This document shows positions 10,268-36,071 of a stretch of 64,000 nt of DNA, piece by piece. The position numbers and the translations under genes were made by a program. Source of the stretch: a virus. How positions within the stretch are numbered: the first letter of the stretch is position 1; each line of letters begins with the position of its first letter. The notes below the pieces were generated by a model. It was given only the letters and a program-made list of their open reading frames with translations, searched no databases and was not told the DNA's origin. Location: positions 19,125 through 83,124 of IMG/VR virus record IMGVR_UViG_3300042502_001233, one strand, 5' to 3'.

Positions 10268-10420
10268 ATGAAGAATAAATATAAAACGAAAACAAAAGTA
10301 AATTATTCTATTAATTCCGAAATAGTTAATAGTTTTAATGATTTAGCTGATAAAAAATCAGTTAATAAATCAAAATTAATAGGTCAATTAATACAAAAAT
10401 GGATAAATGAAAACTTATAA
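10268..10420 (+). CDS. small ribbon-helix-helix (CopG-like) protein preceding the GIY-YIG gene
   Basis: MKNKYK...VNYSINSEIVNSFNDLADKKSVNKSKLIGQLIQKW; the same NKSKLI..LL motif occurs in four other small ORFs before HNH genes. Confidence 0.4.
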   Translation: MKNKYKTKTKVNYSINSEIVNSFNDLADKKSVNKSKLIGQLIQKWINENL

Positions 10421-11045
10421 AATTTACACTTTAAACCATCCAATTACTAATGAAATACGTTATGTTGGACAAACTGTTTATGAACTTAAAATAAGGTTAA
10501 GAAAACATTTAGTTTCTAAAGATAAATCATATAGGACAAACTGGATACAATCATTGTTAAAACAAGATTTAAAACCGATAATAAATTTAGTTTTAGATAA
10601 TTTATCAAAAGAAGAAAGTAATTACTATGAACAATATTATATACAAAAATATAAAGAAAACGGTGTTAACTTAGTCAATTTAACAAACGGTGGTGAAGGT
10701 AGTAATGGGTTTCGTCATAGTGAAGAGACTAAAAAATTATTATCCAATATTAGAAAAGAACAAAAAGAAAAAAATATACTAAAATTTAACTCTATAAATA
10801 ATAAAATTAGTAAAACTAAAACACCTAAAATTGATATTGAGGTTTATTCCGCTAACGTGATAAATCAAAAAGGTAGAAGAAATATTAAGCAATTTACATT
10901 AGATGGTGAATTTATCCGAGAATTTATCTCATTACGAGAAATAGAACGAGAATTAGGTTATTTTAGAGCAAATATAACACCTTGTTTAAAAGGTGAGTTT
11001 AAACAGGCTTATAATTTTATATGGAAATACTCTGATGAAACTTAA
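10407..11045 (+). CDS. GIY-YIG homing endonuclease
   Basis: N-terminal KIYTLNHPITNEIRYVGQT (GIY...YVG); NUMOD-like basic C-terminal region; opposite strand to its neighbours. Confidence 0.8.
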   Translation: MKTYKIYTLNHPITNEIRYVGQTVYELKIRLRKHLVSKDKSYRTNWIQSLLKQDLKPIINLVLDNLSKEESNYYEQYYIQKYKENGVNLVNLTNGGEGSNGFRHSEETKKLLSNIRKEQKEKNILKFNSINNKISKTKTPKIDIEVYSANVINQKGRRNIKQFTLDGEFIREFISLREIERELGYFRANITPCLKGEFKQAYNFIWKYSDET

Positions 11046-11296
11046 ATGATTCTATGTTTAATCATTGACGTATCTATCCCAGCTTTATTTGCCTTTTCGA
11101 TAAGTTCTTTAAGCACACATTTACCAACCTCAGTTATTTCTTTAGCTTTATCCATATCATATAACGTATAACCACGTTCTAATGCGGAAATTTTAACTTT
11201 TTCACTAATTGTTAGTTTATCATTGTGGTTATCCTTTCTAGACACCCCAAGTATTAAACCTTCTTCGTTAATCAATACTACTTGTGCTGTTATCAT
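11042..11296 (-). CDS. chimeric small ORF whose first about 26 aa duplicate the Nudix N-terminus
   Basis: MITAQVVLINEEGLILGVSRKDNHND vs Nudix QVVLINEDGLILGVSRKDNHND, about 80% nt identity over about 66 nt; the two copies flank the GIY-YIG gene. Confidence 0.4.
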   Translation of the reverse strand: MITAQVVLINEEGLILGVSRKDNHNDKLTISEKVKISALERGYTLYDMDKAKEITEVGKCVLKELIEKANKAGIDTSMIKHRII

Positions 11297-11610
11297 TTTT
11301 TTCTATTTTTTTTAGGGGTTAAAGTTGTTTTCCTTTTTTGCCATATTTTAAACTTTGTAGCTAACACATTTTGAGTATAAGTGTTAAGCGGTTCTTCAAA
11401 AGTTTCACATTTTTCATATGATTCTTTATATAATAAATGCATAAGATGAATAGCAGATGTTACATCAACGTGATTTATATCGTTTACTATTTTATCAAAC
11501 CTATTTAATAACCTAGCTGGTTTTCTGGAATCTAAACCCCTTTCATTTATTATATTAACCATGGTTATGGCTGCTGGTGAATCACCAAATGTTCTTTCAT
11601 CTAATTTCAT
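11293..11610 (-). CDS. hypothetical protein
   Basis: 105 aa. Confidence 0.35.
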   Translation of the reverse strand: MKLDERTFGDSPAAITMVNIINERGLDSRKPARLLNRFDKIVNDINHVDVTSAIHLMHLLYKESYEKCETFEEPLNTYTQNVLATKFKIWQKRKTTLTPKKNRKK

Positions 11611-11611
11611 G

Positions 11612-12133
11612 TTATATAATTTTAAAATTAATAGCTTGATGGATACTGAGCCTATCCTCTTTTATCGCATCTTCAATTGTTTCGTGACCAATGTACCAAA
11701 AAGAATCAAATTTACAAAATTTTTCTTTACCCTTTATGTTTCGTTTATAAACCCCATTTGTTTCTGGGAAAATACTGGACTCAATTTTCATTGTAGGGTG
11801 TTTTTTAAGTGACCATTTAATTGGAGTTTTCCAAGTTATAAACAAAGTTTTCGTAACCCCATTTATTGATTTAATTCTGTGGAAGTCTGTTGGTTTCCTG
11901 AATATTACTGAACCAACACTATGTTTTTTAACCTTTATTTTATCACCATCTAAAAATTCTTCAACATAACCATTTTTAAGGATTACGGATATGAAATAAA
12001 AAGGATGGTTATGTAAAAAAGGCGTTTTGTCTTCACTTAAAATTGTGTGAAAACGAACATGTAGTTTTTTATAAGACATCAAAGTCTTTCTAATCATATA
12101 ATTAGGTAAACTATTATACTCCTTAAGTAACAT
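11612..12133 (-). CDS. possible cupin-fold protein
   Basis: LHNHPF...HSVGS...FHRI His-rich motifs; weak. Confidence 0.25.
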   Translation of the reverse strand: MLLKEYNSLPNYMIRKTLMSYKKLHVRFHTILSEDKTPFLHNHPFYFISVILKNGYVEEFLDGDKIKVKKHSVGSVIFRKPTDFHRIKSINGVTKTLFITWKTPIKWSLKKHPTMKIESSIFPETNGVYKRNIKGKEKFCKFDSFWYIGHETIEDAIKEDRLSIHQAINFKII

Positions 12134-12183
12134 AACTATTTTTTACAAAGATACGATATGTTTTTAATATATGCAAATAAAAA

Positions 12184-12199
12184 GGGGTCTTAGGACCCC
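12184..12199. terminator. bidirectional rho-independent terminator hairpin GGGGTC-TTAG-GACCCC flanked by A and T runs
   Basis: perfect 6-bp GC-rich stem seen in the sequence. Confidence 0.6.
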
Positions 12200-13128
12200 T
12201 TTTTTATTTCAGTTACTATACCTTTAATAGCAAAGTTTTTTATTTTTTGCCATTTGGTGATGTTGTTTGACATCACTGGTTTACCACCATCTGGATTTAT
12301 TGCAATCGTAATGTGTGGTATTGCATTGGCTGATGGATAACCTTCTACTTTGACCGCCATGGCCATATCGCTAAGACCTATGGCTTCAACATACAACGTT
12401 ACCTCTTTACCTAAGTCTTCTTTGTTTGGAACACCTTTACCGAATACAATTGTCATGTGGTGAGCAAATACTTTCCAACCTTCTGGGATATAATCATCAA
12501 GTCTAGATAACAACGCTGCTTTAGAACCATTATCCAATACAACAGCTGAATATAACACATCAGATTCTTTGTACATGTCTTTAGACTCCAAAACACTTTT
12601 CAATGTTAGCAATCCTTGACCTTTGTGAGATTCAATCAATGATTGAATTTTTTCCAATGGTACACCGTGAGTATTTCTCTCAGCAAGTATTTCCGCTGGT
12701 AACCCGTTGGTACCTATATCAACAAATTTTATGTTGTTATCAGACAAACCTAATTCTAACGCTGCTTTCACATACGCTTTGGATTCGTTTTGTTTGATGT
12801 TCGTGTTATCCACAATAACTGGTGATAATCCTTCTTTCAAAGATTTTATCGCATTTTTCAAGTTTGTTGAGTGCGCTCTTGACAATGGTGTGAAATCTTT
12901 CGACTCAAACATTGCTGCAAAGAATTTGTTGTAATCACCTTGTGACTCAATAACATCGTCTGTGGAGTGTATGATACCTTCACCTACTAGTTCTTTAGCT
13001 TTTGTGGATTTACCAGAACCTGGTATACCGCGCATAACTATCAGTTCTTGTGTTGGTCTTGTAACTACAACACCCAACGCATTTTTTTTCATGTCTTCTC
13101 TTAATATTGTTCTTATTTCTTTTTTCAT
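12190..13128 (-). CDS. bifunctional polynucleotide 5'-kinase / 2H-family cyclic phosphodiesterase
   Basis: N-terminal P-loop GIPGSGKST (T4 Pnk kinase-like); C-terminal twin HxT motifs HHMTI and HITI typical of the 2H phosphoesterase superfamily. Confidence 0.7.
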   Translation of the reverse strand: MKKEIRTILREDMKKNALGVVVTRPTQELIVMRGIPGSGKSTKAKELVGEGIIHSTDDVIESQGDYNKFFAAMFESKDFTPLSRAHSTNLKNAIKSLKEGLSPVIVDNTNIKQNESKAYVKAALELGLSDNNIKFVDIGTNGLPAEILAERNTHGVPLEKIQSLIESHKGQGLLTLKSVLESKDMYKESDVLYSAVVLDNGSKAALLSRLDDYIPEGWKVFAHHMTIVFGKGVPNKEDLGKEVTLYVEAIGLSDMAMAVKVEGYPSANAIPHITIAINPDGGKPVMSNNITKWQKIKNFAIKGIVTEIKKGS

Positions 13129-13152
13129 TGTGCAAATGTATATATTAGTTTT

Positions 13153-13932: not shown

Positions 13933-13942
13933 ATATACTAAA

Positions 13943-14915: not shown

Positions 14916-15003
14916 TGGAGGAGAATATGGGATTCGAACCCATGGGCCGAACTAACGGCCACGGTTTAGCAAACCGCTCCAATAACCACTCTGGCAATTC
15001 TCC
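14916..15003 (-). tRNA. tRNA-Ser(GCU), type II, CCA encoded
   Basis: Hand fold: acceptor GGAGAAT/ATTCTCC, anticodon loop TTGCTAA, long variable arm GGCCGTTAGTTCGGCCC, T-loop TTCGAAT. Confidence 0.7.
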
Positions 15004-15040
15004 AAATTTGTACCCCTACAGGGACTCGAACCCCGATTCT
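15004..15040 (-). pseudogene. tRNA 3'-half fragment (variable region + T-arm + acceptor 3' strand) abutting the HNH gene
   Basis: GGCTAGAATCGGGGTTCGAGTCCCTGTAGGGGTACA with no matching 5' half upstream; the HNH ORF 15045..15647 occupies that position. Confidence 0.4.
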
Positions 15041-15044
15041 AGCC

Positions 15045-15647
15045 TTAATTTTTGTAATTTTTTAAATATCGGTCTTTTCTAGCTGAGTTTTTATTTTTAG
15101 ATTTATATGTATCTAATTGTGAATCACAATTATGACATATTAACCTTAAATTATTTCTCATATTATTAGACGCATTTCCGTTAATATGGTCTAAAATAAA
15201 ATTCATAGGTTTACCATTCCAAACATTTTTAATATTACATATATCACATTCACAATTTTGTTCTATTAATATATGTTTTTTCAATGGTGCTAAATCTTTA
15301 TTAGCGTTACAAAAATCTTCTTGATTACTCAAATAATTTTTATAGTATTCTTCAGTTTTATGTTTTACCCAACATTCTTTATTACAATATAATTGTTTAT
15401 CATAAGAAGTGTTAACTTCTTTACCACAACACAAACAATTTATTTTCTTACCCTTACCAGTGTTAACTGGTTTGAAATTTTCACCAAATTTTGCTCTGAT
15501 TGGTAATTCAATTCCTAATCGTTTACATACTTTTTTTATATATGTATCAGAAACACCGTATTTTTCACCAATTTTTCTATAAGAAATTTTTTGAACAAAA
15601 ATTAAATCTTCTAGGTCTACTTTTTTATATTTTTCATTATAATCCAT
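15045..15647 (-). CDS. HNH homing endonuclease with N-terminal HTH
   Basis: LDHINGN...NLRLICHNCDSQ HNH motif; inside the tRNA cluster. Confidence 0.75.
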   Translation of the reverse strand: MDYNEKYKKVDLEDLIFVQKISYRKIGEKYGVSDTYIKKVCKRLGIELPIRAKFGENFKPVNTGKGKKINCLCCGKEVNTSYDKQLYCNKECWVKHKTEEYYKNYLSNQEDFCNANKDLAPLKKHILIEQNCECDICNIKNVWNGKPMNFILDHINGNASNNMRNNLRLICHNCDSQLDTYKSKNKNSARKDRYLKNYKN

Positions 15648-15725
15648 AATATTTTTTTATTATAAATATAATGAATTCGAACCAAAAGTCAACTATTTTT
15701 AAATTTAATTTTATGTTCAGATTTG

Positions 15726-15798
15726 TGACCTTATCGGGATTCGAACCCAAACGACAAATTTAGAAGATTTGTATGCTAATCCGTTACATCATAAGGCC
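15726..15798 (-). tRNA. tRNA-Arg(UCU)
   Basis: Anticodon stem CAAAT/ATTTG, loop CTTCTAA; T-loop TTCGAAT. Confidence 0.6.
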
Positions 15799-15816
15799 AG
15801 TTATTATTTAATGTTG

Positions 15817-15890
15817 TGGCTCCGACAGGGCTCGAACCTGTGACCCACAGATTAGAAATCTGTTGCTCTGTCCATCTGAGCTACGGAGCC
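15817..15890 (-). tRNA. tRNA-Arg(UCU), second copy with different sequence
   Basis: GGCTCCGTAGCTCAGATGG...; anticodon stem ACAGA/TCTGT, loop TTTCTAA. Confidence 0.6.
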
Positions 15891-15897
15891 AATTTTT

Positions 15898-15974
15898 TGG
15901 TGACCACGGTAGGATTCGAACCTACAACCTCCGCAGTCGTAATGCGGTGCGCTATCCAGTTGCGCCACGTGGCC
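15898..15974 (-). tRNA. tRNA-Arg(ACG), CCA encoded
   Basis: Anticodon stem CCGCA/TGCGG, loop TTACGAC. Confidence 0.7.
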
Positions 15975-15980
15975 AGTATT

Positions 15981-16053
15981 TGGTACCGAGTATGGGAGTC
16001 GAACCCATGTATTCATCTTTATGAGGGATGAACGTTTTCCTATAACCCTCGGC
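15981..16053 (-). tRNA. tRNA with anticodon CAU (Met or Ile-lysidine), atypical D-arm
   Basis: Loop CTCATAA, T-arm ATGGG/TTCGACT/CCCAT, CCA encoded. Confidence 0.5.
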
Positions 16054-16059
16054 ATTTTG

Positions 16060-16133
16060 CGGCCTCGACAGGATTCGAACCTGTAACCCTTGAGTTAACA
16101 ACTCACCGCTCTAACCATTATAGCTACGAGGCC
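16060..16133 (-). tRNA. tRNA-Asn(GUU)
   Basis: Loop TTGTTAA; G27.A43 mismatch. Confidence 0.55.
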
Positions 16134-16140
16134 TTTTTTT

Positions 16141-16216
16141 TGGCGGCCTAGGTAGGATTCGAACCTACACGCCTCACCTTAACAGGGTGCCGCTCTACCG
16201 TTGGAGCTACTAGGCC
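16141..16216 (-). tRNA. tRNA-Asn(GUU), second copy, CCA encoded
   Basis: Loop CTGTTAA identical to the canonical Asn loop. Confidence 0.65.
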
Positions 16217-16322
16217 AATTTTATATTTTTATCAATACACCGAGTACCACAATTACGGTGCGCCTCTGGCCTACTCGCCAGCAATGCTGTTTTTACCCGT
16301 GGTTACACCATTTGATAGGGTG

Positions 16323-16396
16323 TGGTCCCCTCGGGACTCGAACCCGAAACCGTCGCGTTATGAGCGCGCTGCGCTAACCAATTGCGCCAGAGGACC
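16323..16396 (-). tRNA. tRNA-Met/Ile2 (CAU)
   Basis: GGTCCTCTGGCGCAATTGGTTAGCGC...; loop CTCATAA. Confidence 0.6.
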
Positions 16397-16666
16397 TTAT
16401 TTACGTTTTTCAACAAGATAGTTAATGTAATCTTCGTAGCCATCATCATCATCATCATCATCATCATAATCATCATCTTCTGGTTCAAAGTCTTCATCTA
16501 ACATTTTATCCAGAACTTCAAAAGCTATTTTCATTACTTCGTTTTCTTTACCCTTTAATTGTGGGTTAGGAAGCAAAATGAACAATCCAACTATGGCTTC
16601 TACCAATCCTTTTTCATTTTCACTATATTGTCTTTTCATAGTTGTGACGGTGGGGCTCGAACCCAC
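16397..16666 (-). CDS. small acidic protein inside the tRNA cluster (likely start MKRQY at about 16639)
   Basis: C-terminal DDDYDDDDDDDDGYEDY. Confidence 0.35.
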   Translation of the reverse strand: MGSSPTVTTMKRQYSENEKGLVEAIVGLFILLPNPQLKGKENEVMKIAFEVLDKMLDEDFEPEDDDYDDDDDDDDGYEDYINYLVEKRK

Positions 16667-16725
16667 ATTGTGTTATAAACACCCAGCGTATCAGGCTGGT
16701 GACTAAACCATTCATCCACATCACA
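16642..16725 (-). tRNA. tRNA-like gene with anticodon GAU but a 16-nt hairpin variable arm (non-canonical)
   Basis: Same anticodon loop CTGATAC as the canonical Ile tRNA next to it, plus an extra hairpin GTGTT-TAT-AACAC. Confidence 0.4.
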
Positions 16726-16732
16726 GTTTTCG

Positions 16733-16806
16733 TGGGTAACACGGGAGTCGAACCCATAACCTCTCGCGTATCAGGCGAGTGCTCTAACCAGTTGAGCTAG
16801 CTACCC
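16733..16806 (-). tRNA. tRNA-Ile(GAU)
   Basis: GGGTAGCTAGCTCAACTGGTTAGAGC...; stem CTCGC/GCGAG, loop CTGATAC. Confidence 0.7.
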
Positions 16807-16814
16807 ATTATTTG

Positions 16815-16887
16815 CACGGACCAAGAGAATCGAACTCTTTCCATTCGAGGTTTTGGAGACCTGATGCATGCCATTATGCTGGCCCGT
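16815..16887 (-). tRNA. tRNA-Trp(CCA)
   Basis: Loop CTCCAAA; T-arm AAGAG/TTCGATT/CTCTT. Confidence 0.6.
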
Positions 16888-16894
16888 ATTTAAT

Positions 16895-16989
16895 TTATCA
16901 CCAAAGGATTCGAACCTTTACACCCTTCTCGGGTTACCGTTTTCACTACAGCAGTCAGTACCCAGTTTACTCTTTTGACTCACGTGATA
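16895..16989 (-). ncRNA. tRNA-like element (about 95 nt) with T-arm and acceptor-like ends; anticodon arm unresolved
   Basis: T-loop AAAGG/TTCGAAT/CCTTT and a 6-bp acceptor TATCAC/GTGATA; possibly a type II tRNA. Confidence 0.3.
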
Positions 16990-16997
16990 AATTTAGG

Positions 16998-17083
16998 GTG
17001 AAAAGACGGGACTCGAACCCGCAAGGACATTTCTGTCATCTGGCTCACAACCAGACTCGCTACCGTTACGTACTACAATCACC
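16998..17083 (-). pseudogene. tRNA-His-like (GUG) with extra variable hairpin and mismatched acceptor; probable pseudo-tRNA
   Basis: Loop TTGTGAG, hairpin GACA-GAAA-TGTC, three acceptor mismatches. Confidence 0.35.
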
Positions 17084-17092
17084 ATGTATTTC

Positions 17093-17725
17093 TTATACTC
17101 GACCTAATCTCCAATTATCTGGAATTAAATCATCTTTTTTAATCTTTTTATTTTCACTACCATTTGTTACCCATCGACTACCAAATTGTGAATTTGTTTC
17201 ACCAACACCAGTACCTTTTTTTACTTTAGACATTAATTGTTTAGATTCATGACTATGGGTTTCACCTTCCCAATTTTTAATCCAATTTTTATCTCTAGTA
17301 CCAGTTAAATATTCTAGTGTTCTAGCTGTTGATATTTTATTACTTTTCTTTTCTACCCATTCTGGGTCTTGTCTTAAAAGCTTTTGTTTTTCGTTTGATT
17401 TAATCGCATTCAATTTTTGTTGTTCCGAGCTAAACCCACCAGTACCACCTTCTCTAAGATTCATACACATAGGGTTTTCCACCAACTCTTTAGTAACAAT
17501 TTCAATCTCTCTAAGAACCATTTCTTCTCTTGTAGGTAAAAATTCAAGTATTTCTTTTGTATGGTTTTCCACACCATGTTTTCTAATTGAATACCTAAGT
17601 CTTTTACCACTCCCCATATAACCATCTTCCAGGTTATATGCACTATGCATTCCTACATAATATCTTCCCGTTACATTACATGTTGTTTTATATATGTAAT
17701 GTATGTTTCTTTGTTTTCTTGCCAT
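17093..17725 (-). CDS. GIY-YIG homing endonuclease
   Basis: IHYIYKTTCNVTGRYYVGMHS...GYMGSG; paralog of 38029..38688. Confidence 0.8.
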   Translation of the reverse strand: MARKQRNIHYIYKTTCNVTGRYYVGMHSAYNLEDGYMGSGKRLRYSIRKHGVENHTKEILEFLPTREEMVLREIEIVTKELVENPMCMNLREGGTGGFSSEQQKLNAIKSNEKQKLLRQDPEWVEKKSNKISTARTLEYLTGTRDKNWIKNWEGETHSHESKQLMSKVKKGTGVGETNSQFGSRWVTNGSENKKIKKDDLIPDNWRLGRV

Positions 17726-17784
17726 TTCTCTTTCTTTCTAAATAAATATCTTAAGAAAGAGAAAAGTACAAAAAAGTTTAAGAG

Positions 17785-17859
17785 GGTGGTATATCGGGTT
17801 CGAACCGATGACCCTCGACACCACAAGCCGATGCTCTAACCAACTGAGCTAATACCACC
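17785..17859 (-). tRNA. tRNA-His(GUG) with G-1:C73
   Basis: 8-bp acceptor GGTGGTAT/ATACCACC, loop TTGTGGT. Confidence 0.75.
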
Positions 17860-19114: not shown

Positions 19115-19166
19115 TATGTGCAAAGATACAAAAAGTTAAAATACTGTGCAAGTTTTTTTTAAAAAA
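19115..19166 (-). promoter_or_regulatory. class-1 promoter (TTGCAC-N17-TTGTATCTTTG on minus strand)
   Basis: Plus-strand tgtgcaaagatacaaaaagttaaaatactgtgcaagtttttttt. Confidence 0.4.
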
Positions 19167-24421: not shown

Positions 24422-24484
24422 TTATAATAAACTTAAGGCGGTGCTCTGATAATCTATTTCATAGTTTCTATTATTTAAAGTTTG

Positions 24485-24559
24485 AGGTCGGAGAGAGATT
24501 TGAACTCCCACCGTAAAGGTTCTTGCGGAACCAGTGCCTTACCATTCGACCATCCGACC
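24485..24559 (-). tRNA. tRNA-Cys(GCA), discriminator U73
   Basis: Acceptor GGTCGGA/TCCGACC, loop CCGCAAG, T-loop TTCAAAT. Confidence 0.6.
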
Positions 24560-25166: not shown

Positions 25167-25226
25167 AATTTCTAATTTTTTGTTTATTATAAATATACCA
25201 CACTTTTAAAAAATGTAAAGTGTTTG

Positions 25227-25299
25227 TAGTTCTAATCGGACTCGAACCGATATCTCTCCGTTTTAGAGGCGGGTGTATTCACGTTAATACTATAGAACC
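25227..25299 (-). tRNA. candidate amber-suppressor tRNA, anticodon CUA
   Basis: The 73-nt hand fold fits canonical numbering. Acceptor is GGTTCTA/TAGAACT, D-stem GTAT/ATAC, anticodon loop CTCTAAA (34-36 = CUA), and T-arm ATCGG/TTCGAGT/CCGAT. The anticodon stem has C.A mismatches at both ends. Confidence 0.45.
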
Positions 25300-26181: not shown

Positions 26182-29100
26182 TTACATTTTAAATGCTGTA
26201 ACATAAATAAATTTATCACTTTCTCTTAAAACCAAGTTATCAAAACCTATTTCTAAAAGTATTCTTTTAAATTCATCTTCATTATCTTTCCATTGATTGG
26301 CTGTTTCTGCAATCATGATTGGTTGCATAGTTCTCAATACTCTGTAAGCTTCTTTTAAATAATCTTCATAATTGCTACCCATAAGTGATAAACTAAAAAC
26401 AACAACATCTATAGATTCATCGTCTAAAGGTAATTTTGAAATATCACAAGCTATTACTGAATCATCAATGGCTACGTGGTCAAATGATAACACTTTGTTG
26501 GGTATTTCAGTTTTTAAAAGGTTTTCACCACATCCAAAATCACCAACAATATAATCTTTACGTTTAATTTGTTTAGCGATTTCTTTATATGGTATTTCTG
26601 ACCAAGTTTTTCTAGCTTCACGATACAAAGTATGATACTGATACCACTCAGTTGGGTCCTCGGTTAATCGTTTGTTAGTTGTAATAGAATTTGATACACC
26701 CCAGCGTTTATTCATTTGACTGAACTCACCATATTTAGGTAGGTTATGATTAACATAATTTGGATTCAAAGGTATTTTAAATTCTTCTCTATCAAACGTG
26801 ATAATCTCACCGTTGTTTAAACGATTAACCCATTCGGCCAACTCTTGTTGTGCTTCAAACACTAATCGTTCTCTTGAAGGTAGGAGATTTCTAGGAACAC
26901 GCCCATCAATTGCTAAATCACCCAAAGTTGCTTTAAATCTAATTATATTATGTCTACGTCTGTCCCAACTCCAAATATGTTCGCCAGCTGGTATAATAAC
27001 TTGTGGAATATAAATGTTAACTTTATCAAATTTAGAACCTTGTCTATTAACACGACCAACTAATTGGTCATATTCAGAACTGGTCCATGGAAGTACTATT
27101 GGTATCAATGTGTCACACACATATTGAATACCGTCTACACCAGTACCAACTGGTGCCGAACCAATTAAAACATCTAATTTACCCTTTTTAAAAGCTTCTA
27201 AACCACTTTTATCGTCACCAGTATAAAATCCTATACTAAAACCTAAATCTTTTACGAATTTACCTATAATATCGGTTAATTCAGTAACATAATATGTGTA
27301 TATTAAAGTCCCCCTTTTTATTTTATCTTTAACAGAATCAAGTTTAGTATTAATTAAAACTTTTTCGAACTCGCTAACAGCACCTTTAGGTATTGCTATG
27401 ATTTCATTAAACAAATGACTACCATCAGATTCTATGATTTCTTCGTTAACTGAAATACCATAATTAGGTTTATAACGAAGACCATATCTTGTTAATGCTT
27501 TATACATTTCAATACCATTTACAATGTTTTCTTTGGTTTCTAATTCGTTATGAGATTCACCTGTTAACAATTCAATTAATTTTTTAGGTTCTGTTAAATT
27601 GTTAATAATTGGTGTTGCCGACATAGCCATAACTAATAAATTTTCATTATCTTCTTTAGAGTTTATTATTAGTTTTTTAACAACATTCCTTCTAATAGAT
27701 TCTTCGTTATCACGCTGCTTAACATTTTGAACTTCATCTAAAATTATGTAATCAATCTGATTATATTTTAACAATTCAGAAACAATATATTCACCATCTT
27801 CTAACTGAAACGTTTCATAATTTAATACTAAATAATTATAAACATTTTCTTTTAATTTTATGTTATGTTTATGAACTAAATTATAATTAGAATTAACACC
27901 TTCTAATTCTTTCTTAACGTAAATCTGATTGTTAGTGAAATATTCATTTATGGACTCAACCCAGCCCTCAACAGTTGCATTATTACAAATTATTATAGTG
28001 TTTTTAGCACCAGCTAACCTACCAGCAAATATTGCAGATAAAGTTTTACCAGCACCAGTTCCAGACCAGTTACCGTATTTTTTCTCTTTAATTAAACGAT
28101 AACTAATTAGTTTTTGCATTAAGTTTGGCTGATGTTGAAAAATGTAATCACTTGGGGCGACTATTTTACAAACTTCTTCGTATTCACTAAAAAACCAGTC
28201 TTTAATTATTGTAAACCTTTCACCACCAGTTTCACCTCTTAAAGTATCAACATCTATTTGATTGTTAAGAACTTTATTCCACAATTTTTTTAATTGATTC
28301 TTTAACAAGAAATCAATATTTTCATCATCCAAAGAAGCGGTAACCATTGTATTATCATACATATGTAATTCTTTAATTGGGTCTAAAGGTGCTAATGACT
28401 CTGGTTCTTCTTCAGTAATTTCATCAACATTACCCTCAACTAAATCAACTTCTAAATTAGTTGGTTCGTTTAGAATAGAATCATTGTTGGTGTCATCGTC
28501 AGACTCATCGTTTTCTAACGTATCTAATATATCGTGAATTAATCTTTCTCTTTCCTCCGAACCAGCTTCAGAAGAAGTTAAAGAATCTAATGACCCTATT
28601 TGTTGTATTTTTTTAGCGAGATTGTTTGAATTTATTATGGTTATTAGTTCAACTGAGTCCATATAAATTAAATCTTTTTCTAAAGATTTAATAAAGTCTA
28701 ACATATAACGTTTATTCCAATAGTGACCATCACCTAAAGAACCTAACCAATCACCCATAGAAACCCACCCAGAATATTTGTATGTTTTTTCTGGCATTGC
28801 TGGGATGTTGTCTGGTTTTTTTATGTTTTTCCATTCACTATAAGATTTAAGACCTAAAGTTCTAGCATATTCTCTAGCTTCTTCAAATGGTAAAAACTCC
28901 CTAAAATTTGATAACTTACCATGACCTAACCAATCACTCCAAGATACCCAACCAGATTCTTTATAAACTTGAGATGGTGATGCTGGAATTTCATCTGGTT
29001 TAGCTGAAGATTTAGAAAACAACCTCCATTCTTTTTCACCAGTTAATTTTAAACTTCTAGCATATTCTCTAGCTTCTTCAAATGGTAGATAATCTCTTTT

Positions 29101-30078
29101 GTTACATGATATGTAATTAGTTCCTAACCAATCACCCAGCGACACCCAACCAGAATCTTTATAAACCCTATCTGGGGCACTAGGTATATTATTTGGTCTT
29201 AATTCAGATTTAATAAATTCAACCCATTCCTTTTGTCGGGTTATATTTAATTTTCTAACATATTCTCTAGCCTCTTCAAACTGTAAAAATTTTTTATCAA
29301 AATTTGATAACTTACCGTGACCTAACCAATCAACCCAAGATACCCAACCAGAATCTTTATATGTTTTATTTGGTGATTTAGGAATTTTAACATCATAATC
29401 GGTAGATTTTAAATATGTTCTAAACTCATTAGTGTTATTTAATTTTAAATTATGTATTATTTTCCTAGCTTCTTTAAAATCATAAAACTCATCAAAATCT
29501 TTTTTATAACCTAAAAAATCACCCCAAGATTTCCACCCATAATTTTTATACATTACGTGAGGTGAATAAGGTAAACCATTCACATTTGTTTTGTTTAAAT
29601 ATTCATGATATTTAGTTTGTGATGTTAAACCTAAAATTTTAACTACGTTTTTGGCCTCTTCAAAGGATAAATAATTTCTATTTTTTAAAGCAACGTAATT
29701 AGTTCCTAACCAATCACCCAGCGACACCCAACCAGAATCTTTATATATTTTATCTGGCGATGTAGGTATGTTGTGAGGCCTTAATTCAGACTTATAAAAA
29801 TTTTTCCAATCTTGTTGTGTTTTTAATCCTAAACTCTTAACAAAATTTTTAGCAATTTCAAAAGGTAGGTAACCGTCTTTTAGATTCACCGATGAACATT
29901 TAGTTTTATTTAACAAAGCATATGGTGTTATTAAATGTTCTGTATTAAACTTTTTATCAATAACCACCACTTTTTGGTTAGTATTGACATATTCGACTTT
30001 GGAATAATCATAATTATCGTTCCAATTACCACTATCTCTTAATTTTTGTAAAAACTCTTTTGTTTTATCAGTCATCAT
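26182..30078 (-). CDS. 1298-aa multidomain protein: about 8 tandem repeats of roughly 58 aa (ending YKDSGWVSxGDWLG) + SNF2/SF2 helicase + C-terminal SAM methyltransferase
   Basis: Walker A GTGAGKT, DEVQ box, SAT, helicase motif VI QLVGRVNRQGS; MTase motif I VGDFGCGEN. Confidence 0.8.
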   Translation of the reverse strand: MMTDKTKEFLQKLRDSGNWNDNYDYSKVEYVNTNQKVVVIDKKFNTEHLITPYALLNKTKCSSVNLKDGYLPFEIAKNFVKSLGLKTQQDWKNFYKSELRPHNIPTSPDKIYKDSGWVSLGDWLGTNYVALKNRNYLSFEEAKNVVKILGLTSQTKYHEYLNKTNVNGLPYSPHVMYKNYGWKSWGDFLGYKKDFDEFYDFKEARKIIHNLKLNNTNEFRTYLKSTDYDVKIPKSPNKTYKDSGWVSWVDWLGHGKLSNFDKKFLQFEEAREYVRKLNITRQKEWVEFIKSELRPNNIPSAPDRVYKDSGWVSLGDWLGTNYISCNKRDYLPFEEAREYARSLKLTGEKEWRLFSKSSAKPDEIPASPSQVYKESGWVSWSDWLGHGKLSNFREFLPFEEAREYARTLGLKSYSEWKNIKKPDNIPAMPEKTYKYSGWVSMGDWLGSLGDGHYWNKRYMLDFIKSLEKDLIYMDSVELITIINSNNLAKKIQQIGSLDSLTSSEAGSEERERLIHDILDTLENDESDDDTNNDSILNEPTNLEVDLVEGNVDEITEEEPESLAPLDPIKELHMYDNTMVTASLDDENIDFLLKNQLKKLWNKVLNNQIDVDTLRGETGGERFTIIKDWFFSEYEEVCKIVAPSDYIFQHQPNLMQKLISYRLIKEKKYGNWSGTGAGKTLSAIFAGRLAGAKNTIIICNNATVEGWVESINEYFTNNQIYVKKELEGVNSNYNLVHKHNIKLKENVYNYLVLNYETFQLEDGEYIVSELLKYNQIDYIILDEVQNVKQRDNEESIRRNVVKKLIINSKEDNENLLVMAMSATPIINNLTEPKKLIELLTGESHNELETKENIVNGIEMYKALTRYGLRYKPNYGISVNEEIIESDGSHLFNEIIAIPKGAVSEFEKVLINTKLDSVKDKIKRGTLIYTYYVTELTDIIGKFVKDLGFSIGFYTGDDKSGLEAFKKGKLDVLIGSAPVGTGVDGIQYVCDTLIPIVLPWTSSEYDQLVGRVNRQGSKFDKVNIYIPQVIIPAGEHIWSWDRRRHNIIRFKATLGDLAIDGRVPRNLLPSRERLVFEAQQELAEWVNRLNNGEIITFDREEFKIPLNPNYVNHNLPKYGEFSQMNKRWGVSNSITTNKRLTEDPTEWYQYHTLYREARKTWSEIPYKEIAKQIKRKDYIVGDFGCGENLLKTEIPNKVLSFDHVAIDDSVIACDISKLPLDDESIDVVVFSLSLMGSNYEDYLKEAYRVLRTMQPIMIAETANQWKDNEDEFKRILLEIGFDNLVLRESDKFIYVTAFKM

Positions 30079-30107: not shown

Positions 30108-30155
30108 AAATTTACTTATTAAAGAAAAAGTCATATATTTATAATAAAAATTATT

Positions 30156-30296
30156 ATGAAGAAAGAAAATAAAATTATTGGAATTGCTGTTGATAAAGAA
30201 TTACTTAAAAAAGTTGACGCTGGAAACTATAACCGTTCTAAACTTATCGATGATTTGTTGACCAAACACTACGAAGAAAAAAAAGTTAAAAAATAA
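30156..30296 (+). CDS. small RHH-like protein (cassette ORF A)
   Basis: IIGIAVDKELLKKVDAGNYNRSKLIDDLLTKHY; a paralog is at 35083. Confidence 0.4.
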   Translation: MKKENKIIGIAVDKELLKKVDAGNYNRSKLIDDLLTKHYEEKKVKK

Positions 30297-30368
30297 TTCA
30301 TAAATTTATGACTTTTTTAAATTTCCACGATATTTATAAGTATATAACATTTATTAATACTCATTATC

Positions 30369-30530
30369 ATGGGAAGAAAAGCAAAAATACAAGAAGAAAA
30401 GAAAGATAAAATTAGTATCTCTATCTCAAAAGAAAACTACGAAGCAATGGCTTCAGAAGGTATCAATAAGTCACAACTAATCAATTGGTTGTTAGAACAA
30501 CACTTTAATTTATTAAATTATGGAAAGTAA
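30369..30530 (+). CDS. small RHH-like protein (cassette ORF B)
   Basis: ISISISKENYEAMASEGINKSQLINWLLEQHF, a CopG-like pattern; a paralog is at 35297. Confidence 0.4.
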   Translation: MGRKAKIQEEKKDKISISISKENYEAMASEGINKSQLINWLLEQHFNLLNYGK

Positions 30531-31466: not shown

Positions 31467-31520
31467 AATTTTATTTTTTATTAGAAGAAACCCTACCTTT
31501 TACAGTAGAGTTCCTTGGTT

Positions 31521-32459: not shown

Positions 32460-32464
32460 AAAAT

Positions 32465-32659
32465 TTATTTGTTTAAGTTATTAATTACGTATTTGTGTGT
32501 TTTGCTAATCATGTAAACCGTTGCTATTAGCGCTCCAATTGTGGTTATAAATTGGGTAGTTTCATTCATTGGTCTGGAGATTATGTATTCGGCAAGAATA
32601 TTCATACCTATTACCCATAATACCCAACCTAGAATCAATGTTAAAGGTGTTGTTTTCAT
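32465..32659 (-). CDS. small membrane protein
   Basis: 64 aa, two TM segments. Confidence 0.35.
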   Translation of the reverse strand: MKTTPLTLILGWVLWVIGMNILAEYIISRPMNETTQFITTIGALIATVYMISKTHKYVINNLNK

Positions 32660-32716
32660 ATTTTTAAGTTTTTTTTACAAATATACTAAATCTTTTTCAT
32701 ATATGCAAATAAAAAA

Positions 32717-32730
32717 GGGGCAAATGCCCC
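32717..32730 (-). terminator. terminator hairpin GGGGC-AAAT-GCCCC
   Basis: A-run before and T-rich after. Confidence 0.5.
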
Positions 32731-32735
32731 TCTTA

Positions 32736-33062
32736 TTATGATAGAAGTTCGATTCTTCCTCTGGATATATCTTTAAGACTTGCAGTCTTGTTGGTTATGT
32801 GGTCAACTACCACCCCATCCTTGACTCTGTACGTTCTTCGTTTGTCGCTTCTGTCACCTTTACCGATTTGTTCACGTCTCTCGTCAACGCTTTCTTGTAT
32901 GTGACCAGTTCTGTAATATTCGTTCACACGCTTTTTAAGCTCTTTTAAGGCATCTTCTTTGTTCTGGTGTTGATTCCTTCCATCTCGAACTACTTTGAGC
33001 CCTGTGGCCGCGTGTGTGACTACTACACATGAATCTGTGGTATTTTTGTGCTGACCACCAAA
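32736..33062 (-). pseudogene. release-factor fragment (GGQ domain + C-terminal domain) lacking a start; paralog of 36084..36767
   Basis: The in-frame translation FGGQHKNTTDSCVVVTHAATGLKV...NQHQNKEDAL...RTYRVKDGVVVDHITNKTASL begins immediately after the TAA of the upstream ORF. Confidence 0.5.
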
Positions 33063-33386
33063 TTAAACGGCACGATATTCATTAAGCATTTTTTTAATAT
33101 ATTCCCAACAAATATTTGCGTTTTTAAATTCAACATCACCAAATTGACATAATCTCGTGTATTCTTCATCAATTTCATTGGAAAATTTAGTGCTATATTT
33201 TTTCACATCATCTTTTGATAATTCGTAAAAACTAGGTAAACCATTTTTAACTAAAATATTAGAAAACGCTTCAATTCTAGTATCTTTATCACCACTATAA
33301 AAATGGTCAATCATCTGACAACGACTAGAAATAAGTTCTTCAACTACTTCTAAAGCTTTTATTTTATTTTTAATATCTTTTTTCAC
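33063..33386 (-). CDS. hypothetical protein downstream of the GHKL ATPase
   Basis: 107 aa, 3-nt gap to the ATPase gene. Confidence 0.4.
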   Translation of the reverse strand: MKKDIKNKIKALEVVEELISSRCQMIDHFYSGDKDTRIEAFSNILVKNGLPSFYELSKDDVKKYSTKFSNEIDEEYTRLCQFGDVEFKNANICWEYIKKMLNEYRAV

Positions 33387-33388
33387 GA

Positions 33389-34927
33389 TTAATAAATTAT
33401 AAATTTTCGTAACCTTTCACTAACTTTAATGAAATATTCGGTTAACATTATTTCTTTTTCAGTATCATTATAATACTCAATATCAGCTAAAGCCAACCCT
33501 AATGAAGCTAATAACTTAAAAGCTACATCTTTAGTTTCAAAGTTAGTTTTACTCATAAATTTAGACCAAAAAGGATGTTCTTGATTTATTTCTAAAATAT
33601 ATAGACCTTGTTCTTTAACCGTTTTAAACATCAAACCATTTTCACCTAATTTAATAAATCTATAATCAAAAAATTTATCATCTCTGACTCTAGTTTGATT
33701 TGGTTTACTTCCTGGTTTAACCGTTTCTTTCTTTTCAACTGGTGTCTCACGTTTTGTGTTCATACCCCTTTCTTTTTTAATATCAATAAAACGGTTATTA
33801 TTGATACTTTTAGTTGACTCATCTAACTCTTTTTTAACATCCTCAGTCAACTCTATATTCAATGTTTGGTCTTCTCTACTTCTGATTGTTTTAATATAAG
33901 GTTGGATAGCATTTCTACAAATATCTTTAAACCCTTGGTCAATATCATTTTTATCCTTTTCATGTATCATTTTATTGAAAGTTGACCCGAATAAGTCATC
34001 ACCACTACCATTAACAAATAATTCAATTCTAACACCATTAGAATACCCATCACCTATTTTACCCACAATACCTAAATCCAAACCAGCCCCAACTAAACGT
34101 TTATTTCTATAAATATAAAGGCCAGCATTACTACTATTTCTACCAATTTTTGTTGATAATGAAGTACTAACACCTTCTAAATTATAAACACTAAATTTAA
34201 TTTCATTCTCACCATAAACTATTTTTTCATTTGATGTGAGACATTTGGAGTAAAATTCTTTACGAAACATTGGGTCGAAAGATTCAACTAACTCATCGTT
34301 AACAAATAATTTAACATTTAATTCATCAATAAAATATTTGAAATATAAACTAAGTTTACTTTTTAAAATATCTTTAAAAATAGAAGGGTTTGAATTTGAT
34401 ACTTTATCAAGTTTATATAATTTAATAATAGTACCTGTATCAGAACCAACGTCTTCTTTAAACGATTCTAATTCTTCTGGAGTACCAGTTCTAATAGGAA
34501 TAATAAAAGTATTTTGGTCTAACAAAACCTCTAAATCATAAGTGGCAATATATAATGAACCATTTTCACTTTTTGTTATCACATCAAAAGCTTTACCGAT
34601 AGATAAGGCAGCAGCTTTAAGACCAGTACCATATGAACCTAAATCGAACTCTCTGTTTTTACCAGTTAAAGCACCAAGTTTAAATGCTTCTTTTAACGTT
34701 TCTAAATCCATACCACAACCATCATCACAAATTTTAATGTGGTCATACTCATCTTTGATTTTCTTAATTGTAATTTTAACGTTTTTTGAGTTAACGTTTG
34801 TGTCTAGTGAATTATCAATAATATCAGCAATTGCCGCATAATTATTGTAACCAGAATTTCTTAAAGTCGCTAAGAAATTGACATTTGGAGTTACATCCAA
34901 ACCATTTGTTTCGTTTAATTTTTCCAT
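33389..34927 (-). CDS. GHKL-superfamily (MORC/HATPase_c_3-like) ATPase
   Basis: Bergerat motifs ADIIDNSLDT, ICDDGCGMD, LGSYGTGLKAA. Confidence 0.65.
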   Translation of the reverse strand: MEKLNETNGLDVTPNVNFLATLRNSGYNNYAAIADIIDNSLDTNVNSKNVKITIKKIKDEYDHIKICDDGCGMDLETLKEAFKLGALTGKNREFDLGSYGTGLKAAALSIGKAFDVITKSENGSLYIATYDLEVLLDQNTFIIPIRTGTPEELESFKEDVGSDTGTIIKLYKLDKVSNSNPSIFKDILKSKLSLYFKYFIDELNVKLFVNDELVESFDPMFRKEFYSKCLTSNEKIVYGENEIKFSVYNLEGVSTSLSTKIGRNSSNAGLYIYRNKRLVGAGLDLGIVGKIGDGYSNGVRIELFVNGSGDDLFGSTFNKMIHEKDKNDIDQGFKDICRNAIQPYIKTIRSREDQTLNIELTEDVKKELDESTKSINNNRFIDIKKERGMNTKRETPVEKKETVKPGSKPNQTRVRDDKFFDYRFIKLGENGLMFKTVKEQGLYILEINQEHPFWSKFMSKTNFETKDVAFKLLASLGLALADIEYYNDTEKEIMLTEYFIKVSERLRKFIIY

Positions 34928-34991
34928 AAATAAAAATTATTTTATATTTAATCGTATTATTTTACGCATTCTAAATTTTTCAATTTAAAAT

Positions 34992-35036
34992 ACATGCAAA
35001 GATACTAACAATATCATCGCTTGTCAAGTTTTTTTC
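34992..35036 (-). promoter_or_regulatory. class-1 promoter (TTGACA-N17-TAGTATCTTTG on minus strand)
   Basis: Plus-strand atgcaaagatactaacaatatcatcgcttgtcaagttttttt. Confidence 0.5.
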
Positions 35037-35082
35037 TATTTATTTTTAATTAATTTTCAATATATTTATTAAAAACAAAACT

Positions 35083-35223
35083 ATGGACCAGAAAAAAATA
35101 AGCGTAGCATTATCACCAGAAGTTCTAAAACAATTAGAAGATAGTAACTATAATAAATCAAAATTAATCGATTCTTTATTAACTGAACACTTTAAAAAAG
35201 AAAATGAAAAAAAGTTAAAATAA
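35083..35223 (+). CDS. small RHH-like protein (cassette ORF A, paralog)
   Basis: ISVALSPEVLKQLEDSNYNKSKLIDSLLTEHF. Confidence 0.4.
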   Translation: MDQKKISVALSPEVLKQLEDSNYNKSKLIDSLLTEHFKKENEKKLK

Positions 35224-35296
35224 AAATCGCACTGGTACGACTTTTTTCTAATTTCTAGATATTTATAGATATAACAATTATCTAACACAAAATATC

Positions 35297-35464
35297 ATGG
35301 GAAGAAAAGCAAAACTACAAGAAGAGAAAAAAGGTAAACTATCAATCACCATCTCATCCGATAACTATGAAATACTAGTTAATGAAAACATCAATAAATC
35401 TAAATTAATCGATTGGTTATTAGAACAACATTTTAACTCTTTAAACAATGGGAAGGGTGCTTAA
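35297..35464 (+). CDS. small RHH-like protein (cassette ORF B, paralog)
   Basis: LSITISSDNYEILVNENINKSKLIDWLLEQHF. Confidence 0.4.
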   Translation: MGRKAKLQEEKKGKLSITISSDNYEILVNENINKSKLIDWLLEQHFNSLNNGKGA

Positions 35465-36071
35465 TGATGAACAGAAAAAAGCTAGAGCTGAATACCAAAA
35501 AGCTTGGCGAGAAGCTAATAAAGAACGTTTAGCTGAATGGCATAGAGAATATAGAAAGAATAACCCAGAAAAGAACAAAACCAACACTAAAGCGTATAGA
35601 GAGCGTCACCCAGAAAAAGCAAAAGAATCAACTAAAAAATATAAAGCGAATAATCAAGACAAAATTAAAGCTGCATCAATAGTGTATAGAGGTAGAAAAC
35701 TTGAATTACATAATATCAAAAAAGCTAATGACCCAGTGTATAATTTAAAATGTACTGTTAGAAGCGGTATATTAAAATCTTTCTCCAGAATCAACGCTAA
35801 GAAAAACAATAAAACAGTTGAAATTCTAGGATGTTCTTATGAGTTTTTAAAAGAACATATTGAATCAAAATTTGAACCATGGATGACTTGGGGCAACAAA
35901 GGTCTTTATAATGGTGAATTAAACTACGGTTGGGATGTAGACCACATCATACCACTGGATACAGCGGTGACCGAAGAAGATGTGATTAGACTTAACCATT
36001 ATACCAACCTACAACCACTTTGTAGTAAAATCAATCGAGATATTAAAAAAAATAACCCTAGTTACTACTAG
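35448..36071 (+). CDS. HNH homing endonuclease (paralog of 30520..31185)
   Basis: GWDVDHIIPL...NLQPLCSKINRDIKKN. Confidence 0.8.
   Translation: MGRVLNDEQKKARAEYQKAWREANKERLAEWHREYRKNNPEKNKTNTKAYRERHPEKAKESTKKYKANNQDKIKAASIVYRGRKLELHNIKKANDPVYNLKCTVRSGILKSFSRINAKKNNKTVEILGCSYEFLKEHIESKFEPWMTWGNKGLYNGELNYGWDVDHIIPLDTAVTEEDVIRLNHYTNLQPLCSKINRDIKKNNPSYY

Follow-up and report, generated by a model that had tools for sequence, protein, structure and literature searches.

Ribbon-helix-helix-like leader genes in homing-endonuclease cassettes of a large uncultivated phage: candidates for on-board repressors

Why would the endonuclease genes of a phage be preceded by one or two tiny genes for what look like DNA-binding proteins? 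The question is raised by a stretch of 64,000 nucleotides (nt) from the IMG/VR virus record IMGVR_UViG_3300042502_001233 (positions 19,125 to 83,124 of that record; hereafter the window), which is AT-rich (~31% G+C) and has nearly all its genes on the minus strand. An earlier note on this DNA described three plus-strand insertions of like architecture, and all five small open reading frames (ORFs) and the nuclease genes of these insertions are indeed present (Table 1). Two of them, cassettes A and B, carry HNH nuclease genes, and the third, the GIY cassette, carries a GIY-YIG nuclease gene. Judged from sequence and models, we lean towards the view that they are freestanding homing-endonuclease cassettes whose ribbon-helix-helix (RHH) proteins repress the cassettes' own promoters. 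That the RHH genes are real, encode an RHH fold and form an integral part of the mobile unit is very likely.

The small leader proteins

In the full form of the unit, that of cassettes A and B, a promoter-like box would be followed by RHH1, a hairpin with a T-run, a second box, RHH2 and the nuclease gene; the short form, that of the GIY cassette, would comprise one promoter-like box, one RHH gene and the nuclease gene. Cassettes A and B align end to end and their HNH proteins are 51% identical (E 1e-54), in agreement with their proposed paralogy. Exact or near-exact copies of the window's units occur on independent metagenome contigs. A protein identical to RHH1b (P0067) is encoded on 7 contigs, the longest of 362 kb, and the GIY-linked RHH of 50 amino acids (aa) has an identical counterpart (P0083) in the same context on 17 contigs. 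In the JGI annotation the small ORFs are hypothetical, with one case, P0116 (98% identical to RHH1a), named CopG/Arc/MetJ.

Short and AT-rich as they are, next to spacers that hold generic promoter and hairpin elements, the small ORFs might be chance frames whose conservation stems from cis elements alone. In an alignment of the five small proteins, N, S, L, I and L positions are invariant, and a hidden Markov model built from these proteins, run over the 1,140 six-frame segments of the window, picks out the same five and no others (E 2e-21 to 2e-26; next E 0.6). Beyond the window, the family yields 333 word-index matches and 455 representatives at E<=1e-3 in a set of 1.84 billion cluster representatives (50% clustering), nearly all of them 42-70 aa long. 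The median ratio of non-synonymous to synonymous substitution rates (dN/dS) is ~0.27 for the ORF1 and ORF2 types each (35 cassettes, hundreds of pairs, dS up to ~2), and 0.20 for the pair of cassettes A and B; this analysis covered the ORF1 and ORF2 subtypes of the HNH cassettes, the GIY-linked single ORF being left out. Such values indicate purifying selection on both subtypes. Conservation of the small ORFs, a check that had been named beforehand, is thus borne out, and the idea of chance frames is refuted by the size and constant length of the family together with dN/dS. The concordant profile matches, all to RHH proteins, also speak against it, and we give it practically no credence.

The resemblance of the small proteins to RHH repressors, also proposed earlier, is upheld by many weak, concordant matches, of which all the informative ones are to RHH proteins. 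In Pfam, the window's small ORFs match the CcdA N-terminus, RHH_3, CopG_antitoxin and ParG, the GIY-linked protein matching RHH_3 at E 0.006 and both CopG_antitoxin and ParG at E 0.13. The PHROG matches of the latter protein are a CopG-like and an Arc-like repressor. NCBIfam matches comprise CcdA, a MazE-type antitoxin model and the LexA-regulated protein PRK11675 (E 1.4e-4 for the GIY-linked RHH), and the best matches in a PDB profile search are all RHH proteins, namely the Rv0298 antitoxin (E 0.03), CopG (E 0.16-0.4) and CcdA. Among 143 diverse representatives of the family, 57 match Pfam CcdA, 21 RHH_3 and 5 RHH_1 (best E 2e-5). When the family profile was compared using hhalign with a small ORF of LR756501 that passes the Pfam RHH_1 and RHH_3 cut-offs, the probability was 92.8%; the comparison with CopG gave 61.6% over the strand, helix A and helix B.

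The sequences themselves display the RHH topology of ~45 residues, with K-I-S-I-S-I-S, in which polar and hydrophobic residues alternate, as the N-terminal strand followed by two helices. In an AlphaFold2 (AF2) model of the monomer (pLDDT 76), residues 1-20 are extended and helices span residues 21-29 and 34-51; the strand is not expected to form without a partner chain. An invariant N-K/R-S opens helix B and aligns with L-S-K-S of CopG, in keeping with the small or polar motif (G-x-S/T/N) by which the inter-helix turn of RHH proteins caps that helix. The helix A and loop region is four residues shorter than the canonical one in the four HNH-linked proteins. None of the RHH proteins has an extra domain, and the predicted DNA-contact residues of the strand, K-x-S-x-S/T-x-S, are conserved between cassettes with different nucleases and at different insertion sites. 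We consider the RHH assignment, drawn from these profiles and models, to be well supported.

Nucleases behind the leader and mobility of the unit

The large proteins of the three cassettes have the features of homing-type nucleases. HNH-A matches PHROG endonuclease VII (E 7e-15), and a phmmer search of PDB sequences with it returned no match. In 41 sequences of the HNH family D163, D165, H166, N187 and N196 are invariant and correspond to the D-x-D-H, N and N columns of the active site. In the AF2 model of HNH-B (pLDDT 89), helical repeats form a bundle, after which comes a beta-beta-alpha unit (strands 162-166 and 188-192, helix 193-202). An HNH catalytic motif on a beta-beta-alpha core is thus found in the invariant columns and in the model. 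The top Foldseek matches of HNH-B are colicin E7/E9, pyocin, Cas9-HNH and I-HmuI, all weak (E ~1); its Pfam HNH match (E 0.01) is below the cut-off, and it has >4,800 homologues. In the GIY-YIG protein, which has an N-terminal catalytic domain and a NUMOD module, as expected of GIY-YIG homing endonucleases with their NUMOD or helix-turn-helix (HTH) DNA-binding modules, NUMOD1 scores above its cut-off (24.6 vs 22.8 bits) and Pfam GIY-YIG just below (E 7.6e-4, 20.2 vs 22.6 bits). The same protein matches the group I intron endonuclease model TIGR01453 (E 5e-11, 43 bits vs a cut-off of 56) and the PADLOC 'homing endonuclease' model (E 6e-5), and PADLOC returned no match for the RHH or HNH proteins.

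Is the leader a regular companion of such genes? A scan of IMG/VR with the RHH profile gave 54 loci. The synteny suggested for the three-gene unit is seen in 50 of them, with RHH1-type and RHH2-type ORFs 27-99 nt apart, and in 53 of the 54 an ORF of 127-441 aa starts in the interval from ~10 nt before the RHH2 stop to 30 nt after it. The downstream products represent 37 distinct proteins: 17 HNH, eight GIY-YIG and two GIY-YIG-like proteins, five DUF723/treble-clef proteins, one LAGLIDADG protein (Pfam E 9e-16), two DUF4379 zinc-finger proteins, one DUF7487 protein and one whose class was not recognised. A C-terminal FDFYLP...EYxGxQH motif is present in 4 of the 5 DUF723-type proteins, which, given this motif and a weak DUF559 match in a related protein, are probably PD-(D/E)xK nucleases. 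The association of leader and nuclease noticed earlier therefore holds, but its generality had been underestimated, as the same RHH leader stands in front of nucleases of at least three unrelated families and, in addition, of DUF723-type proteins.

The claim that the small ORFs travel with the endonuclease genes as one unit is supported by comparison of insertion sites. A unit composed of a 47-aa RHH1, an identical 53-aa RHH2 and an HNH protein of ~212 aa occurs, in antisense orientation, in at least three different gene contexts; the contigs concerned reach 276 kb. In two of these contexts, the homology runs from ~105 nt 5' of RHH1 to the stop codon of the nuclease gene, and these sharp boundaries place the RHH genes within the mobile unit. 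Elsewhere the RHH module remains 91-96% identical where the body of the nuclease has been replaced (locus L003 vs L007; the window vs L001), which indicates recombination breakpoints at the RHH2/nuclease junction. As expected of freestanding homing endonucleases, the units sit between intact genes of opposite strand, and the same unit is found at different loci. Twenty cassettes are flanked on both sides by genes of one and the same strand; 17 of them lie antisense to both neighbours and three are co-oriented, these 20 loci not being phylogenetically independent.

In addition, partial duplications of a neighbouring gene flank the GIY cassette and the block that includes cassette B. The GIY cassette is flanked by the 5' end of a Nudix gene and a diverged copy of it, with N-terminal peptides in common; the more distant copy is joined to an unrelated ORF of 84 aa (11042-11296). 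The direct repeat of the release-factor gene brackets a block of ~3.3 kb (3.35 kb) containing cassette B. This duplicated release-factor region has the appearance of a scar left by recombination or homing.

Variants of the leader were also encountered. In L120 (LR756501.1 90177-93878, positions 1525-2641), from a 735-kb uncultured phage, a divergently transcribed RHH gene whose product passes the Pfam RHH_1 cut-off adjoins an RHH gene and a DUF723/PD-(D/E)xK-like nuclease gene, beside a DNA-polymerase-like gene; L012 and L112 have the same divergent layout. In other phages, the position directly 5' of HNH homologues is occupied by a small DNA-binding leader with a different, apparently MerR-like fold: MerR/HTH_17-like ORFs of 45-49 aa are found in L013 (2753-2890), L036 (2739-2888) and L044 (2729-2866).

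What the leader might do

The spacer between RHH1 and RHH2 had been described as conserved, and the strings in question are found at 30311-30350 and 35240-35278. Their conservation stands, but they do not appear to form an operator specific to the cassettes, as the same layout lies 5' of many ordinary phage genes. The spacer is composed of the A-rich end of RHH1, a short hairpin with a T-run, and ACTTTT-N13-ATATTTAT. The hairpin, T-run and ACTTTT-N13-ATATTTAT also precede ordinary minus-strand genes, for instance at 7617, 17749, 18399, 22572 and 38712. With 35 occurrences in the window, ATATTTAT exceeds the 14.5 expected, and many of its copies are located ~13-17 nt 5' of the start of a minus-strand gene. 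Of 35 unique cassettes, 26 have a hairpin with a T-run, the stems being 9-13 bp long in nine; those of the window are short. The hairpins were sought with a custom-made scan, as a generic sigma-70/terminator scan needs 3 G-C pairs and misses AT-rich hairpins; that of cassette B (35227..35247) has an internal mismatch that leaves it unscored by the automatic scan, and it has support at the family level. The spacer looks like a terminator-promoter junction of the kind used generally by the phage. RHH1 appears to form a short transcription unit of its own, with RHH2 and the nuclease gene in a second one. TATTTA is found in all 35 regions of the second promoter-like box (P2) and in 25 of 35 regions of the first (P1). 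Many relatives have, in addition, an inverted repeat of 8-10 bp, the first arm of which overlaps the promoter box while the second ends at the RHH2 ATG. Its arms change in compensatory fashion between lineages, and it is significant in several relatives. This repeat could be an operator palindrome, or else an RNA hairpin that blocks translation of read-through transcripts, as one does in T4.

We propose that the RHH proteins, as putative minimal DNA-binding dimers of CopG/Arc size, bind on or close to the promoters of their own cassette and thereby repress these. The nuclease start codon lies inside the end of RHH2, so that translation of the two would probably be coupled, and repression would produce a brief, self-limiting pulse of nuclease. 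Such a pulse would be independent of the landing site, which matters because the units are mostly antisense to their neighbours. Autorepression is in our view the most economical reading because the proteins are minimal RHH units devoted to DNA binding, and because their predicted base-contacting residues are conserved whatever the nuclease type or insertion site, the cassette itself being the only DNA common to those cassettes. Furthermore, a self-contained module suits an element that lands antisense in foreign transcription units. A role in cis is also suggested by the promoter box being the only non-coding motif in all cassettes, by the 6-bp inverted repeat around that box in the GIY cassette and by the repeats linking the box to the RHH2 ATG in relatives.

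There are precedents for several aspects of this proposal. In the immI region of P22 (mnt, arc, ant), two small RHH repressors control one downstream gene, and Arc (53 aa) is encoded by the first gene of the arc-ant operon, which it represses, giving rise to a transient burst. The cassettes similarly have two small RHH genes and one downstream gene, with an RHH gene first in the putative operon, and this RHH2-first order with an overlapping start suggests a self-limiting pulse like that of Arc. The divergently transcribed first RHH genes of L012, L112 and L120 are reminiscent of mnt. In contrast with immI, where the controlled gene is that of an antirepressor, the cassettes encode a homing endonuclease and are mobile and multi-copy. 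No sequence similarity between the RHH family and Arc/Mnt was detected, and an operator overlapping the promoter as in P22 is suggested only by the repeats of the GIY cassette and of the relatives, those of cassettes A and B not being significant. As for selfish elements, Arc in IS605 (TnpA/TnpB) elements is a compact RHH protein that binds and represses the native promoter of its own element, and this element encodes in addition a nuclease whose maintenance function is of the homing type (bioRxiv 10.64898/2026.09.24.754181). Those elements are, however, bacterial transposons with an RNA-guided nuclease and a transposase, unlike phage-borne, protein-only cassettes that usually have two RHH paralogues.

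The freestanding endonucleases of T4-like phages (seg and mob genes, I-TevI, MobE) resemble the cassettes in that HNH or GIY-YIG genes are lodged between conserved phage genes and make use of phage promoters, hairpins and terminators; flanking partial gene duplications are a further point of resemblance. The inverted repeat between the promoter box and the start codon in the relatives recalls the hairpin-plus-late-promoter device of T4 endonuclease genes. I-TevI represses itself through its own DNA-binding domain, and we know of no dedicated regulator genes for T4 seg and mob genes; the cassettes differ from the latter by a separate leader of one or two RHH genes in a mobile unit that is mostly antisense. 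The position of the leader is also that of the C proteins of restriction-modification systems, small DNA-binding proteins encoded just 5' of the nuclease gene, often overlapping it, which time nuclease expression after genome entry. C proteins have an HTH rather than an RHH fold, and the cassettes have no methyltransferase partner; no C-box-like operators were found in them, nor any conserved motif beyond the general promoter box.

Several results weigh against autorepression. Analysis of 6-mer enrichment in the 35 cassettes brought out only the general promoter box and lineage-specific flanks, and no operator that could be told apart from the general phage promoter emerged in this way. Inverted repeats in cassettes A and B are no better than those of shuffled sequence (p 0.95 and 0.54). 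The window's RHH ORFs each fall below the Pfam cut-offs (CcdA 13.9-19.4 bits vs 22.4; RHH_3 17.0 vs 21.6), and a Foldseek search with the RHH monomer model found nothing. A third HNH paralogue of the window (36754-37545, minus strand) has no RHH leader, and only 3 of 44 loci retrieved with the HNH protein have this RHH. The nuclease does not need it, as the other 41 loci attest; at some of these the place is taken by a MerR-like HTH ORF or a divergent RHH, at others by nothing. Lastly, a 244-aa metagenomic protein, P0241, fuses an HNH_3/I-HmuI-like N-terminus to this RHH at residues 111-157, which hints at a direct role with the nuclease, although it could be either a true fusion or a frameshift or gene-calling artefact.

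P0241 carries its RHH where I-HmuI-type enzymes have DNA-binding modules. Together with the probable co-translation of the overlapping RHH2 and nuclease genes and with the MerR-like HTH ORFs in the same position in other phages, it would fit RHH proteins acting in trans as recognition or protection subunits, which recruit the nuclease to the homing site or shield the cassette-bearing allele from self-cleavage (immunity). We find this unlikely: among the partners of the RHH family are nucleases already equipped with DNA-binding modules (NUMOD, zinc ribbons, DUF723 repeats), identical RHH2 proteins are present at different insertion sites, the putative base-contacting residues of the strand hardly vary, most HNH loci lack the RHH, and P0241 is a single sequence. 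A role as transcription factors for the phage or host genome at large, e.g. for the ATATTTAT promoter class, with the nucleases hitch-hiking or using RHH DNA as a recombination handle, would account for the genome-wide promoter box being the only universally conserved non-coding motif nearby and for the breakpoints that make the leader a shared block of homology. It is nevertheless rather improbable, as RHH genes of this family occur in the window only in front of nucleases, all but one of the IMG/VR loci have a nuclease-type ORF next, and copy number and position vary between related phages as for a mobile element and unlike a core regulator.

The analogy with an antitoxin/toxin unit drawn in the earlier note found no support. 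In a type II pair the RHH antitoxin would neutralise the nuclease by direct binding, and both the gene order, with a small RHH gene first and overlapping a potentially toxic nuclease gene, and the best sequence matches, which include the antitoxins CcdA, ParD, Rv0298 and MazE-type proteins, are those of such systems. These matches are, however, limited to the DNA-binding RHH part. RHH antitoxins have a C-terminal toxin-binding region, whereas the proteins of the window (46-55 aa) stop ~2-4 residues past helix B in the model, which leaves no tail for binding a toxin. The partners of this one RHH family are homing endonucleases of several folds, from at least three unrelated nuclease families. 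In addition, there are two RHH genes, the first in its own putative transcription unit, and neither the RHH nor the HNH proteins have a PADLOC match. We thus regard a toxin-antitoxin pair as very improbable. A broader possibility than autorepression is that the RHH pair represents a platform independent of the nuclease, and a new class of modular two-component homing elements in which nucleases of any fold are swapped at the RHH2/nuclease junction. The pair would then combine regulation with a protein-DNA function, marking or protecting the resident allele or recruiting whichever nuclease sits behind it. This is a speculative proposal that we consider unlikely.

Returning to autorepression, the leader would probably be a control module that the cassette carries along with it. 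Among selfish DNA elements, homing endonucleases are the simplest, and enzymes for genome engineering have been drawn from them; to our knowledge self-limitation of their activity has been established for only a few T4 cases. A conserved small leader in front of HNH, GIY-YIG, LAGLIDADG and DUF723-type (probably PD-(D/E)xK) nucleases suggests general, portable control, which would also explain insertion against the direction of transcription. The idea is directly testable, with proteins of 46-55 aa, candidate target DNA of <100 bp and hundreds of natural variants. The leader may also serve as an annotation flag for new homing endonucleases in metagenomic phages, as the small ORFs are usually uncalled or labelled 'hypothetical'.

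How unusual is the arrangement? It had been called so, which is correct for cultured phages, and it turns out to be common in metagenomic large phages. In tblastn searches of 50,697 GenBank phage records, RHH2a had no match at E 1e-3 and RHH1b had weak matches only (E 8e-3 or worse), the best of them in the uncultured 735-kb phage. No description of RHH-led cassettes was found in the literature on homing endonucleases with RHH or CopG. Freestanding homing endonucleases and RHH autorepressors in mobile elements are known ingredients; what appears to be new is that they are combined, that the leader is paired and that it serves unrelated families of nucleases.

The phage and the neighbourhood of the cassettes

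Table 1. Positions of the cassette elements and flanking repeats in the window.
Feature	Position	Strand	Remarks
Nudix gene 5' end and diverged direct copy	10101..10193 and 11219-11311	.	either side of GIY cassette; 93 nt, 75% identical
GIY cassette promoter-like region, ATATCT - TCATATTTAT - AGATAT	10246..10267	+	6-bp inverted repeat around box, ending at ATG
Single RHH, 50 aa	10268..10420	+	helix A of canonical length, 4 residues longer than in the other four
GIY-YIG/NUMOD homing endonuclease, 212 aa	10407..11045	+	overlaps RHH by 14 nt
Cassette A P1, ATATTTAT promoter-like box	30135..30142	+	13 nt 5' of RHH1a
RHH1a, 46 aa, ORF1-type RHH protein	30156..30296	+	Pfam CcdA N-terminus E 0.028
Terminator-like hairpin TCATAA-at-TTATGA then CTTTTTT, after RHH1a	30298..30318	+	read from sequence
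Cassette A P2, ATATTTAT box	30330..30337	+	31 nt 5' of RHH2a; ACTTTT 13 nt upstream
RHH2a, 53 aa, ORF2-type RHH protein	30369..30530	+	basic N-terminal arm MGRKAK
HNH-A, 221 aa	30520..31185	+	start overlaps RHH2a stop by 11 nt; CxxC...CxxC zinc ribbon, basic helical repeats, C-terminal HNH (H-N-N) motif
Cassette B P1, ATATTTAT box	35062..35069	+	13 nt 5' of RHH1b
RHH1b, 46 aa	35083..35223	+	Pfam CcdA E 0.0014
Imperfect hairpin TCGcAC-tg-GTaCGA then CTTTTTT	35227..35247	+	read from sequence
Cassette B P2, ATATTTAT box inside AGATAT-TTAT-AGATAT	35259..35266	+	30 nt 5' of RHH2b
RHH2b, 55 aa	35297..35464	+	72% identical to RHH2a
HNH-B, 207 aa	35448..36071	+	overlaps RHH2b by 17 nt; no zinc ribbon; helical repeats, C-terminal beta-beta-alpha-metal motif
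13-bp perfect hairpin across HNH-B stop	36050..36079	.	between convergent HNH-B and release-factor genes
Release-factor gene 3' end and diverged direct copy	36081..36222 and 32733-32874	.	142 nt, 75% identical

The window is part of a very large uncultivated phage known from metagenomes alone, as deduced from a T4-type capsid protein encoded on neighbouring contigs and from exact copies of several window proteins on a 362-kb contig. A megablast search with 12 kb and 5 kb of the window against the 50,697 GenBank records found no near-identical phage. Two promoter-like classes recur across the window, for example at 9515, 12146, 22606, 30093 and 34997 (plus-strand coordinates). One is TATCTTTG, which lies 5' of some minus-strand genes and fits what we take to be the Bacteroidota -7 promoter consensus TAnnTTTG; the other is ACTTTT-N13-ATATTTAT, ~13 nt 5' of many start codons and often directly after a hairpin and T-run. 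TATCTTTG often precedes minus-strand genes, and its plus-strand form is CAAAGATAC. The latter is conserved 5' of both cassettes A and B; it was rejected as a cassette element because the minus strand there reads TATCTTTG, the -7 box of the neighbouring minus-strand genes that recurs across the window. The host is likely a member of the Bacteroidota, given the fit of TATCTTTG to the -7 consensus and the best matches of the HNH family in cultured phages, which are in Flavobacterium phages.

The window contains 16 tRNA genes (14916-17858, 24484-24559, 25226-25299 on the minus strand, 37933-38819). That at 25226-25299 has a CTA anticodon, is called Pyl by ARAGORN and could be an amber suppressor; no widespread in-frame TAG was seen in the window. 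The release-factor-like gene next to cassette B (36084-36767, minus strand; best match RF1, E 9e-46) lacks domain 1 and has a single in-frame TGA (36606-36608), the only such stop found in a recognisable minus-strand gene of the window. RF1 does not read UGA, and this TGA could be a read-through or autoregulatory device. Stop-codon recoding throughout the genome was rejected as the cause of the split gene, as there is only one in-frame TGA on the coding strand. The second release-factor copy (32733-33062) is truncated at its N-terminus and keeps the GGQ motif. Between the two copies lie an ORF of 107 aa, the gene of a 512-aa MzaB-like GHKL ATPase (33389-34927) and cassette B.

The third HNH paralogue shares 31% identity with HNH-B and has a C2H2/ROS-MucR-like zinc finger at its N-terminus; its gene runs in the same direction as the phage genes and has its own ATATTTAT box at 37560-37567. 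Another plus-strand ORF among minus-strand genes (43235-43888, 217 aa) has neither an RHH leader nor a recognisable nuclease motif. Upstream of cassette A, a minus-strand gene (26182-30078) encodes a protein of 1,298 aa made up of repeated DUF723-like modules, a helicase and a methyltransferase. The DUF723-like repeats are encoded at 29042-29867 in units of ~195 nt, and in other phages the DNA-binding portion of certain RHH-led nucleases is likewise made up of DUF723 repeats.

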